Part shown: positions 8,541 through 50,248 of the stretch, one piece after another
Position numbering within the stretch: the first letter of the stretch is position 1
Layout: every line of letters begins with the position of its first letter
The notes under the pieces: generated by a model
What the model saw: the letters and a program-made list of their open reading frames with translations, nothing else
Databases searched by the model: none
Told to the model about the DNA's origin: nothing
Made by a program: the position numbers and the translations under genes
Virus record (IMG/VR): IMGVR_UViG_3300037067_018912
Location: 256,001 to 320,000 of that record
Length of the DNA stretch: 64,000 nucleotides
Source of the DNA: a virus
Taxonomy: Duplodnaviria > Caudoviricetes
Reading direction: 5' to 3' (one strand)

Positions 8541-8582
8541 TGTAACTTTTATTTGTTAGTCTCGTATTTATTCGTACATTTG
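8541..8582 (+). promoter_or_regulatory. stacked promoters (ECF-type TGTAAC-N16-CGTA, GTATTTAT, Bacteroidota -7 TACATTTG)
   Basis: TGTAAC 8541, CGTA 8563, TACATTTG 8575. Confidence 0.7.
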
Positions 8583-8619
8583 CATCACGATTTTTGATAA
8601 ACTAAGTAAAAACAATATA

Positions 8620-8712
8620 ATGTTTGCATTCGGAACATATTATTACACCAAGAAATCTTATAAAAAGCAATTTATAGGAATCGGGAATAATATGTCCACA
8701 TGCGAAAGATAA
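8620..8712 (+). CDS. Tyr/Lys-rich leader peptide MFAFGTYYYTKKSYKKQFIGIGNNMSTCER (attenuator 1)
   Basis: 30-aa ORF between promoter and terminator; TAT TAT TAC ACC AAG AAA TCT TAT AAA AAG; upstream of Lys/Tyr tRNAs. Confidence 0.85.
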   Translation: MFAFGTYYYTKKSYKKQFIGIGNNMSTCER

Positions 8713-8737
8713 GCAATGATCTTTGCATTATGCACTG

Positions 8738-8767
8738 AAAACCCGGTTCGAAAGACCGGGTTTTTTT
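8738..8767 (+). terminator. intrinsic terminator of attenuator 1
   Basis: AAAACCCGGT-TCGAAAG-ACCGGGTTTTTTT; 5' arm can pair with GAATCGGG at 8678-8685. Confidence 0.9.
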
Positions 8768-8777
8768 GTTTTATGTT

Positions 8778-8849
8778 GATCTCGTAGCAAAGTTGGTTTA
8801 GCCTCGGACTTTTAATCCGAAGACGTGGGTTCGAGTCCCACCGGGATCA
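8778..8849 (+). tRNA. tRNA-Lys(TTT)
   Basis: TCGGA-CT TTT AA-TCCGA cloverleaf. Confidence 0.92.
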
Positions 8850-8919
8850 CAGCGATGGAGACATTTGGAACTTTTGTAGAACAGCCGCACAAATGCGTGG
8901 AAGCGTAAAAGTTCAATAA

Positions 8920-8998
8920 GGAAGTGTTGGGTGCTGGAATACCCAAGAGTCTGTAAAACTCCCGCTTCGGCATGTAGGTTCGAGTCCTACCACTTCCA
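8920..8998 (+). tRNA. tRNA-Tyr(GTA)
   Basis: GAGT-CT GTA AA-ACTC, variable arm, GGAAGTG/CACTTCC acceptor. Confidence 0.9.
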
Positions 8999-9073
8999 CT
9001 AACTGAAACCGTGTGAACCGGAGTTTCTGTTAACCCGTTCAATTAGAACGGGAAGAGTTTAAAAGGTTCATTT

Positions 9074-9157
9074 GTATCCGTAGCAAAGAGGCTATGCACC
9101 AGACTTTTAATCTGGGGACAGTATTGTCCTACGTGGGTTCGAATCCCACCGGGTACA
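9074..9157 (+). tRNA. tRNA-Lys(TTT) with long variable arm
   Basis: CCAGA-CT TTT AA-TCTGG then GGACA-GTAT-TGTCC arm. Confidence 0.88.
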
Positions 9158-9222
9158 CTGATAAAACTTAACGTGGTCGGAAGTTTATTATTCCGAAAGG
9201 CAACTGTTTCAAGATCACAAAT

Positions 9223-9304
9223 GCAGTCGTGGCAGAATGGCCATGCTCCTGACTCTTAATCAGGGTACGAAAGTACGATGGGGGTTCGAATCCCTTCGGC
9301 TGCA
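9223..9304 (+). tRNA. tRNA-Lys(CTT) with long variable arm
   Basis: CCTGA-CT CTT AA-TCAGG then GTAC-GAAA-GTAC arm. Confidence 0.88.
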
Positions 9305-9310
9305 CAAAAT

Positions 9311-9382
9311 GTCTTCGTGGCTCAACGGTAGAGTAACTGACTCTTAATCAGTGGGTTGTGGGTTCGAATCCCACCGGGGACA
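9311..9382 (+). tRNA. tRNA-Lys(CTT)
   Basis: ACTGA-CT CTT AA-TCAGT canonical cloverleaf. Confidence 0.93.
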
Positions 9383-9388
9383 CAAAAT

Positions 9389-9502
9389 GGGAGTGTGGTC
9401 GAGCGGTAGACGCAGGCTGAATTGGTACACTGTTTGGGTTTACAACCTTAACAAACAGAGGAAGCCTGATAAGTACGCAGGTTCGAATCCTGCCACCCTC
9501 CA
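9389..9502 (+). ncRNA. tRNA-like RNA with expanded anticodon arm
   Basis: D and T arms intact; CAGGCT/AGCCTG stem encloses ~44 nt including a CTGTTTG/CAAACAG hairpin. Confidence 0.7.
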
Positions 9503-9507
9503 CAAAA

Positions 9508-9753
9508 ATGATGAGTATGGAAACTTTAAAACAAATCGTAAGCGGAACATTGGCCAAAATGAGCCATATGTGTAACGGAAAAGTGTATTACACGATCGAT
9601 ACACAGGAACATTCGTATCAACTTGAAATTGATTGCCTGGACAAGGAATGGAAGGATGTTTATATCCTCCCGAAGTATAAGGCGATCACTCTGATGCGTT
9701 GGATCAGAAAAGGCATTGAGAAGGACAACGGCACGTTCATAATGTTGAAATAA
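9508..9753 (+). CDS. hypothetical protein
   Basis: 81-aa ORF between tRNAs. Confidence 0.7.
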   Translation: MMSMETLKQIVSGTLAKMSHMCNGKVYYTIDTQEHSYQLEIDCLDKEWKDVYILPKYKAITLMRWIRKGIEKDNGTFIMLK

Positions 9754-9759
9754 TGTGTT

Positions 9760-9848
9760 GGGAGTGCGGTAACGGTGGTGGTGTTGCAATTGACTGTAAA
9801 TCAATTCCCATAGGGTAAACATTGGGGGTTCGAATCCCTCCACTCTCA
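9760..9848 (+). tRNA. tRNA-Tyr(GTA)
   Basis: ATTGA-CT GTA AA-TCAAT, long variable arm. Confidence 0.9.
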
Positions 9849-9851
9849 CAC

Positions 9852-9881
9852 AAAACCCGGTTCGAAAGACCGGGTTTTTTT
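9852..9881 (+). terminator. terminator closing the Lys/Tyr array (same sequence as 8738-8767)
   Basis: AAAACCCGGTTCGAAAGACCGGGTTTTTTT. Confidence 0.9.
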
Positions 9882-16436: not shown

Positions 16437-16562
16437 ATGAAAACTTTAGCCACATATAGGCCAACGTCCGGATCGACAGAAAGTCGCAACGGGAATGCTA
16501 TATCCTGCTCATTTATTAATGACGGCAGAGGCATATACGGCATCGGGTTATTGTTTTCGTGA
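16437..16562 (+). CDS. codon-sampling leader peptide MKTLATYRPTSGSTESRNGNAISCSFINDGRGIYGIGLLFS (attenuator 2)
   Basis: 41-aa ORF; 29 of 41 residues are T/R/S/G/N/I/C/F, the specificities of the downstream tRNAs. Confidence 0.85.
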   Translation: MKTLATYRPTSGSTESRNGNAISCSFINDGRGIYGIGLLFS

Positions 16563-16589
16563 GAAAAAAAGGACAGTTAAAACTTAACG

Positions 16590-16619
16590 AAACCCGGTGT
16601 CAAAAGCACCGGGTTTTTT
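16590..16619 (+). terminator. intrinsic terminator of attenuator 2
   Basis: AAACCCGGTGT-CAAAA-GCACCGGGTTTTTT; 5' arm can pair with GGCATCGGGTT at 16539-16549. Confidence 0.9.
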
Positions 16620-16662
16620 GTTTTAGGGTTGTTGTGTATAGTTTTTTGGGTTCTTTTCATAC

Positions 16663-26906: not shown

Positions 26907-26979
26907 GGTTCTGTAACTTAATCGGCTAAAGTAGCAGTCTCTAAAACTGTGTTTGCGGGTTCGAACCCCGCCAGGATCA
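26907..26979 (+). tRNA. amber suppressor tRNA (anticodon CTA)
   Basis: GCAGT-CT CTA AA-ACTGT; GGTTCTG/CAGGATC acceptor; GCGGG-TTCGAAC-CCCGC T arm. Confidence 0.9.
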
Positions 26980-26995
26980 CCTATATATTTTTACA

Positions 26996-49443: not shown

Positions 49444-49564
49444 AAGTTACAAAATTTAATGCTTATTAGTCGAACTTTATTTGTATTTTTACGTAACATA
49501 TTACGGAAACAGTTTAAAACAAATTATTAAAGGTCTAAATTGAATAACTTTAAACGTGTGCAAA

Positions 49565-50248
49565 ATGAAAACAGCAAACAGTAAAACAGCAAAAAACAGA
49601 TACAACAAATCACGTGTTATGCGTATGGCATGGGTTGTATACCGCAAAAATGGTGGTGACTTATTATGGTCAGACAGCCTGAAACAGGCGTGGAATATGG
49701 AAAAGAACGGTTTGGCCGTTAATACCATTGAAAACCTTTATACAAGGTATTATAAAATGATTTTCAACCATATCATTTTAAGGGTGCGCAAATATGAGAT
49801 AGCACAGGAATTGACACAGGATGTCTTAATCAAAGCCAATGAACACCTTGCAAATTATGACGTTATGCGCTCCAAAGTATCAACATGGCTTTTGACTATT
49901 GCCAATAACAAAATAATTGATTTTTACCGGAGCAATGCCAATGCAAGTAATAAGGTCAATATTGGCGATTTTGTGAACGAAAAAGGTAATGAAACCCTGC
50001 CCATCATTGGCGGTTCACAGGCTAATGAAATGACTGAAAACGAAGAGTTAAAGGAAAAGATAATGTCCTGTATTGACAAATTAAAACCTAATTACAAACA
50101 GGTTGCTATATTGCGCTTTGTCGAAGACAAGGAATACAGCGAAATAGCCGAGGCAATGTCCATAACCATTGACAATGTGAAAGTTATGGTAAACCGTGTC
50201 CGTGCAATGTTACAAGAGCAATTGCAGGACGAATATTCCAACCTCTAA
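49565..50248 (+). CDS. ECF-type RNA polymerase sigma-70 factor with N-terminal extension
   Basis: Region 2: LYTRY...AQELTQDVLIKA...STWLLTIANNKIIDFYR; region 4: IDKLKPNYKQVAILRF...YSEIAEAMSITIDNVKVMVNRVR. Confidence 0.92.
   Translation: MKTANSKTAKNRYNKSRVMRMAWVVYRKNGGDLLWSDSLKQAWNMEKNGLAVNTIENLYTRYYKMIFNHIILRVRKYEIAQELTQDVLIKANEHLANYDVMRSKVSTWLLTIANNKIIDFYRSNANASNKVNIGDFVNEKGNETLPIIGGSQANEMTENEELKEKIMSCIDKLKPNYKQVAILRFVEDKEYSEIAEAMSITIDNVKVMVNRVRAMLQEQLQDEYSNL

Follow-up and report, generated by a model that had tools for sequence, protein, structure and literature searches.

The stretch analysed here, a window of 64,000 nucleotides (C1:256001-320000 of the virus record IMGVR_UViG_3300037067_018912, Caudoviricetes), carries at positions 8620-9881 a short leader open reading frame (ORF), an intrinsic terminator and an array of lysine and tyrosine tRNA genes; according to sequence comparison and folding models, these very probably form a trp-type ribosome-mediated transcription attenuator that supplies Lys/Tyr tRNAs on demand. 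The phage probably makes these tRNAs only when ribosomes read Lys and Tyr codons slowly. The record is a complete genome of 357,275 bp with direct terminal repeats and 61 tRNA/tmRNA genes, and it holds four such leader-terminator-tRNA cassettes, which together span all 20 amino acids. The Lys/Tyr element is conserved and would work like a multivalent leader-peptide attenuator; the structural features expected of such a device are present, with the exception of the geometry of the OFF state, which is uncertain.

Leader, hairpins and terminators

The features of the cassette all lie on the plus strand. The leader ORF (8620-8712, 30 aa; A at -3, no Shine-Dalgarno sequence) is placed as a short ORF between a predicted promoter and the controlled genes, and its codons 7-16 (8638-8667) read YYYTKKSYKK: The four Tyr and four Lys codons within ten positions, with AAA and AAG both used, are as the original prediction had claimed, and these 8 of 10 codons are cognate to the Lys/Tyr array that follows. 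Among the 1,807 small ORFs of the genome, this leader is the sole one with at least eight Lys/Tyr in ten codons, and in the proteome only 1 of 86,535 windows reaches that density. The predicted promoter, overlooked at first, is of the Bacteroidota type (8552-8582; TTTG at -33, 8552-8555; 19-nt spacer; TAnnTTTG at -7, 8575-8582), as judged by the sequence and the published consensus (PMC7366714). It is overlapped by the motif GTATTTAT (8564-8571), which occurs 58 times in the 120 nt 5' of ORFs versus 6.9 expected (eightfold) with a peak 20-30 nt before the ATG, and whose core GTATTTA is found 5' of all four leaders; it is probably a phage-specific promoter element. A sigma-70 match at 8594-8621 was rejected as promoter, as it overlaps the leader start codon.

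The leader RNA can fold into a segment 1:2 hairpin (8635-8695; anti-antiterminator, possibly a pause hairpin), the outer (8635-8644/8686-8695) and inner helix (8656-8664/8671-8679) of which had both been proposed and are both present in the minimum free energy structure (z -5.5); across the conserved loci described below, 90.6% of cells were paired in the 1:2 helices. Segment 2, the antiterminator strand GAATCGGG (8678-8685), starts 13 nt downstream of the position at which the last Lys codon begins, a distance of approximately one ribosome leading edge, and pairs with 8742-8749 in 8 bp including one G-U. This pairing is mutually exclusive with the intrinsic terminator (segments 3:4, 8738-8767; hairpin of -14.7 kcal/mol, 7-T tail), and compensatory changes accompany the two alternatives. 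The terminator ends 10 nt before the first tRNA; no promoter was found between the two, the stretch from the hairpin to the tRNA consisting of TTTTTTTGTTTTATGTT only, so that there is no room for a separate promoter and the array depends on readthrough. The antiterminator and the terminator, as well as the identical terminator closing the array (9852-9881), correspond to those originally drawn. The 27-nt terminator sequence is identical at 8738 and 9852 (chance expectation 0), but the closing copy lacks an upstream antiterminator strand (best upstream duplex -7.9 versus -13.8 kcal/mol for the opening terminator) and, having no strong upstream complement, serves as an internal control for the attenuator. 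When 48 terminators of the genome were ranked by an upstream duplex with the 5' arm, those of the four arrays took places 1, 2, 3 and 5. As a side observation, at a paired position the opening terminator (8738-8764) departs from the consensus of the family, but it equals the closing copy (9852-9878), which suggests a recent local duplication or conversion.

The switch was modeled by masking the region occupied by a ribosome, -17 to +12 relative to the A site, and by cutting the transcript after segment 3. In this genome, the antiterminator formed with a probability of 0.84-1.0 when the A site was at codons 3-16; the value dropped to 0 for codons 17-28, was 0.03-0.13 for a ribosome at the stop codon and 0 if no ribosome was present. 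The difference between a ribosome on the Tyr/Lys codons and one at the stop codon, proposed beforehand as a check, was accordingly recovered. The profile was robust to other footprint edges and start sites, its upper boundary being Lys16-Gln17 for edges of +10 to +15, and the mean probability over the Lys/Tyr codons exceeded 0.8 in 48/48 loci, i.e. a stalled ribosome favors the antiterminator in silico throughout. When two synonymous changes were introduced into segment 2 in silico, the ON state fell only by half, and this counts as weak evidence.

The following sequence of events is proposed, for which we infer leader translation, its coupling to transcription, kinetic trapping and the physiological trigger. 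RNA polymerase would start near 8588 and a ribosome would translate the leader. At normal speed of Lys/Tyr decoding, the ribosome would run over segment 2, which it covers from codons 17-28; behind it, the 1:2 hairpin would recapture segment 2, the terminator would form and transcription would end 10 nt short of the first tRNA. A shortage of charged, intact tRNA-Lys or tRNA-Tyr would make the ribosome linger on codons 7-16 and mask segment 1, leaving segment 2 just past its leading edge and free to pair with the emerging terminator 5' arm; the antiterminated polymerase would then read through the 1.1-kb array to the closing terminator. As the products of the array decode the leader, this would amount to a direct negative feedback on tRNA supply.

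Conservation, sister cassettes and distant phages

Relatives of the Lys/Tyr cassette were reached in three ways, i.e. by the neighbouring vWA gene, by the control codons and by the RNA elements alone, and amounted to 48 distinct loci with an intact leader ORF of 25-31 codons/aa, in which the open frame and the helices are kept at a mean column identity of 68%. Much of the invariance in this alignment is built in by the search patterns; reliance was therefore placed on those features that each pattern had left unspecified. The search with RNA elements only, which provides the cleanest test, yielded 18 new loci, 13 of which were Lys/Tyr leaders before Lys/Tyr arrays; four others were leaders of the Thr/Ser/Ile/Asn type, for three of which the matching array could be seen, and the last was a chance match without tRNAs. 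In the search with Lys/Tyr codons only, every match for which sequence was available, except for a single chance match, also had segment 2, the terminator and Lys/Tyr tRNAs. When the RNA pattern was applied to 185,579 bacterial and archaeal genomes, only one of 63 matches had both leader and array, and this was probably a mis-binned phage scaffold. The scaffold in question (L238, 362,763 bp, in a Paceibacterota metagenome-assembled genome) has the size and the leader of phage G002, and is probably that phage. No close DNA match to the leader (8620-8712) was found in any cultured phage.

Within the 48 loci, Lys and Tyr were seen to exchange at control positions, and in two loci (L189, L194) a one-base deletion shifts the frame across segment 2 while the control codons and the segment 2 RNA are kept; both features point to selection on codons and RNA, not on the peptide. 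All three helices exhibited paired changes. In 1:2, the pair 8664:8671 (third base of Lys15 and first base of codon 18) is G-C in 33 loci and A-U in 13, a count that includes relatedness, so that shuffle counts are not probabilities; in 2:3, a compensatory change in segment 2 and the terminator arm was found in G004/L213 and also across paralogues; in 3:4, the A-to-G change of the window in the terminator arm is matched on the 3' arm.

The three sister cassettes of the same genome follow the same design. The leader of cassette A (C1:249120, 5' of the window) precedes Pro/His/Gln tRNAs, that of cassette B (C1:253373, 5' of the window) precedes Asp/Glu/Val/Leu/Ala/Trp tRNAs and, further on, Leu and Met, and cassette D (leader and terminator at 16437-16620, plus strand) has a 41-aa leader rich in Thr/Ser/Arg/Asn/Gly/Ile/Cys/Phe before an array of those tRNAs. 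The four-cassette layout recurs in five other complete genomes; 21/21 leaders scored best against their own array and contained every amino acid of that array, although these leaders come from related genomes and are not independent cases. Segment 2 and the terminator 5' arm change together across cassettes and genomes. A grouping of the amino acids into the four arrays by synthetase class or by tRNA modification class gave no fit by inspection.

Leaders with other groupings occur in distant phages. The cultured Acidobacteriota phage Tunturi 5 (PP885688), reached via homologues of an 81-aa ORF of the array (see below), possesses three tRNA arrays (Leu/Cys/Tyr/Ser; Asn/Gln/Gly/Thr/Pro/His/Ala/Phe; Trp/Asp/Met/Lys/Val/Arg/Glu/Ile), each behind a hairpin and a best-matching leader (p 9e-4, 0.07 and 3e-6), and arrays 1 and 2 have an upstream complement as well (-15.2 and -17.4 kcal/mol); the paper describing this phage noted 43 tRNAs and did not mention leaders or attenuation (PMC11924767). 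The 735-kb phage LR756501 exhibits the same leader-array design for Arg/Thr/Val/Ala/Gly/Pro. In Caulobacter phage phiCbK, compared by sequence and annotation, there are two ORFs that each stand ahead of an annotated terminator and the matching tRNAs, one (gp083) rich in Ser/Leu/Ala/Pro/Lys and the other, unannotated, rich in Gln/Phe/Val/Ile. The tRNA region of Lak-B2 revealed no terminator-leader cassette by the criteria used. That the leaders track different groupings in unrelated phages is the strongest argument for the codons over the peptide.

OFF state, alternatives and trigger

The codon-sensing switch of the original prediction is supported by folding, conservation, covariation, paralogues and the distant phages with other groupings, whereas its OFF state is less clean than had been drawn, and several observations weigh against an attenuator that senses Lys/Tyr supply. 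Firstly, the ON zone (codons 3-16) includes Phe, Ala, Gly, Thr and Ser codons, the Lys/Tyr enrichment of the whole leader taken by itself is modest (p = 0.02), and in a few relatives the array includes an additional Leu, Cys or Val tRNA call for which there is no matching control codon. Secondly, the equilibrium of the full transcript lies with the terminator, which is more stable than the antiterminator by 2-5 kcal/mol when a ribosome is stalled and by 10-12 kcal/mol in the other cases; once the hairpin is complete the terminator wins, and in consequence readthrough needs kinetic trapping, with the antiterminator forming first (the barrier from the antiterminated to the terminated state is approximately 10.5 kcal/mol). 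Thirdly, segment 2 of the Lys/Tyr class lies 22-24 nt before the stop codon and is left uncovered by a ribosome at the stop, whereas such a ribosome covers segment 2 in cassettes A and B and in 4/5 D cassettes; the low antiterminator probability at the stop in this genome arises via the 1:2 hairpin and not via masking. In most relatives 1:2 is too weak for this: The median antiterminator probability was 0.89 without a ribosome and 0.99 with a ribosome at the stop, in an equilibrium model that lets 2:3 pair around the ribosome and ignores looping or steric cost, and the 1:2 hairpin, though present and covarying, was dominant without a ribosome in only 11/48 loci. According to the models, termination in most relatives would rest on timing, on early local folding of 1:2 or on the steric cost of pairing around the ribosome.

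These points leave some room for a switch of the same RNA structure that responds to the overall speed or shut-off of translation, or to the stage of infection, and not to Lys/Tyr supply; the array would then be turned on whenever the first half of the leader is read slowly or carries no ribosome. The non-cognate codons in the ON zone and the antiterminator that forms without a ribosome in most relatives would suit such a sensor, but a match between each of the four leaders and its own array would be superfluous for it, and neither the different groupings followed by leaders in other phages nor the Lys-to-Tyr exchanges at control positions would be expected from it; we regard it as unlikely. 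Considerably less probable is a functional peptide encoded ahead of an ordinary terminator, with the tRNAs obtained via leak or a phage processive antitermination factor and the complementarity incidental. The identical hairpin does serve as closing terminator, the peptide looks well conserved among close relatives and the genome carries its own sigma factors (three Sigma70_r2 genes, one at 49556-50248); part of the peptide conservation, however, stems from the search pattern, the frame of the C-terminal half is shifted in L189 and L194 without loss of the RNA segment, the array terminators stand out for their upstream complements, and the codon content tracks the array in every lineage examined. 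That the leader is a product of chance or a relic, its Lys/Tyr codons yielded by AT-rich DNA and the cassette no longer functional, is highly improbable: Lys and Tyr codons are AT-rich, as is the region, and the 2:3 helix of the window has a G-U where relatives have an A-U, but the leader stands alone among the small ORFs of the genome, its frame and helices are kept in all 48 loci, and only the mis-binned phage scaffold among the prokaryote matches combines leader and array.

The attenuator would read slow decoding of Lys/Tyr codons, whatever its cause. Since more tRNA cannot cure a missing amino acid, the trigger is most plausibly the loss or overload of tRNAs during infection rather than amino-acid starvation. 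In T5-like phages, a tRNA-Tyr counters retron-Eco7 PtuAB and a tRNA-Lys counters PrrC170, the phage copies rescuing infection (PMC11555353). These are the same two amino acids as in the Lys/Tyr cassette; the T5-like phages, in contrast, rely on a strong promoter and were tested in enterobacteria, and attenuation is not mentioned in that study. A counter-defence role of the Lys/Tyr cassette would fit the targets of PrrC170 and retron-Eco7 as well as the presence of genes for RtcB and for a nucleotidyltransferase domain of the CCA/poly(A) family in the genome. As a more tentative proposal, to which we assign somewhat less than an even chance, the four leaders might act as a surveillance panel of the host tRNA pool, with the Lys/Tyr module gated apart since defence nucleases often target these two tRNAs; such an attack would make it release replacement tRNAs, among them two of atypical structure, and perhaps also a decoy RNA and a small helper protein, i.e. 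an inducible RNA-based counter-defence.

Array contents, host and known systems

The contents of the array are as originally listed, i.e. two Lys(TTT), two Lys(CTT), two Tyr(GTA) and one tRNA-like RNA: tRNA-Lys(TTT) at 8778-8850, tRNA-Tyr(GTA) at 8920-8999, a second tRNA-Lys(TTT) at 9074-9158, tRNA-Lys(CTT) at 9223-9305 and at 9311-9383, the tRNA-scaffold RNA at 9389-9501 and tRNA-Tyr(GTA) at 9760-9849. Two features had escaped notice, namely the 81-aa ORF inside the array (9508-9753) and the long variable arms of the Lys tRNAs at 9074-9158 and 9223-9305. These class II-like arms are atypical for Lys and might alter the recognition by nucleases or synthetases. The tRNA-scaffold RNA (Rfam tRNA, 33 bits) has a 45-nt module in place of the anticodon loop and no canonical anticodon; L154, L195 and L126 have kept both scaffold and module, two helices showing paired changes, and the RNA could be an intron-containing tRNA or a decoy. 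The structured spacers between tRNAs at 9001-9073 (similar in L200) and 9160-9222 (95% identical in L172) may be small RNAs.

The 81-aa ORF shares 64-70% identity with its counterparts in the Lys/Tyr arrays of five relatives and has homologues in Lak phages, in a 735-kb phage and in Tunturi 5; it directly precedes a tRNA-Tyr both here and in Tunturi 5 (9508-9753 and L282:11992-12219, respectively), and a homologue sits within the Lak-B2 tRNA region. No Pfam family and no PDB match were found for it, only a weak match to a PHROG without assigned function, and a fold search with a pLDDT-63 model gave atlas scores below 0.8 and no significant fold match.

The host of the phage would be a member of the Bacteroidota. 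This is suggested by the TAnnTTTG boxes enriched 5' of the ORFs of this genome (50 observed versus 22.6 expected), by ORF starts with A at -3 and no Shine-Dalgarno excess, as described for Bacteroidota promoters and start sites (PMC7366714), by the best cultured matches of the ribonucleotide reductase, which are Bacteroides crAss-like phages, and by the homologues of the 81-aa ORF in Prevotella Lak phages. Elsewhere in the genome, tRNAs with CTA and TCA anticodons are present (26907-26981 of the window and C1:159671-159745). A tRNA with the CTA anticodon occurs in 6/6 complete genomes although TAG still terminates some long ORFs (code 11), and may therefore be a suppressor. Short repeats of ATGAAAAACGTTTA or GCATAAAAAC precede the tmRNA at approximately 1665-1735 of the window, and repeats of this type occupy the gap between terminator and first tRNA in several relatives (L127, L130, L132, L164); they are possible protein-binding sites.

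Enterobacterial attenuators of amino-acid operons that depend on leader peptides (thrL for Thr/Ile, the ilvGMEDA leader, trpL, hisL) resemble the phage cassette in the short leader ORF with clustered control codons, the alternative 1:2/2:3/3:4 helices, the intrinsic terminator before the controlled genes and the stall position that frees segment 2. They differ in that the phage cassette controls tRNA genes, the product of which itself decodes the leader, in that it is phage-borne and one of four cassettes partitioning all 20 amino acids, and in that its segment 2 is inside the ORF, 24 nt before the stop, where a ribosome at the stop leaves it uncovered. The controlled unit comprises six tRNAs, the tRNA-like RNA and the 81-aa ORF of no known family, with no biosynthetic enzyme or synthetase gene; because tRNA genes are controlled, the cassette stands outside the attenuator families of amino-acid operons. 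The pheM-pheST attenuator of Escherichia coli likewise responds to a charged tRNA and acts on part of the translation machinery, but it is chromosomal, addresses a single amino acid and governs the synthetase genes instead of tRNAs. T-box riboswitches, too, are terminator/antiterminator switches that respond to tRNA charging, and they have been mentioned ahead of tRNA genes for some Firmicutes; they bind the uncharged tRNA directly and need no translation. No T-box was detected in the phage cassette by Rfam, either at the gathering score or at E values up to 5.

A leader-peptide attenuator has been described for pheL (PMC3082878), and attenuation by leader peptides was reported as likely in Flavobacterium (PMC9723704). 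The trn operon of Anabaena, a tRNA array that stays silent until translation stress, is under control of the repressor TrcR (PMC10272220); there, in contrast to the phage cassette, a DNA-binding repressor acts at initiation on one array without codon specificity. No account of leader-peptide control of tRNA genes was found in the searchable literature, outside which most subscription journals lie, and a 2026 preprint on phage tRNAs mentions neither attenuation nor leaders.

Why phages carry tRNA genes is a long-open question, the main answers being codon bias, replacement of degraded host tRNAs and escape from anticodon nucleases. A sensor tied to slow decoding implies that the need for tRNAs is conditional and specific for each amino-acid group, and a conditional need favors replacement over constitutive codon optimisation. 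Classic attenuation would herewith acquire a form that acts on non-coding RNA genes and closes a direct feedback loop, and the leader cassettes would provide a ready reporter of which tRNAs fail during infection. As the cultured phages Tunturi 5 and phiCbK possess the design, even if it has not been described there as such, it is testable now.
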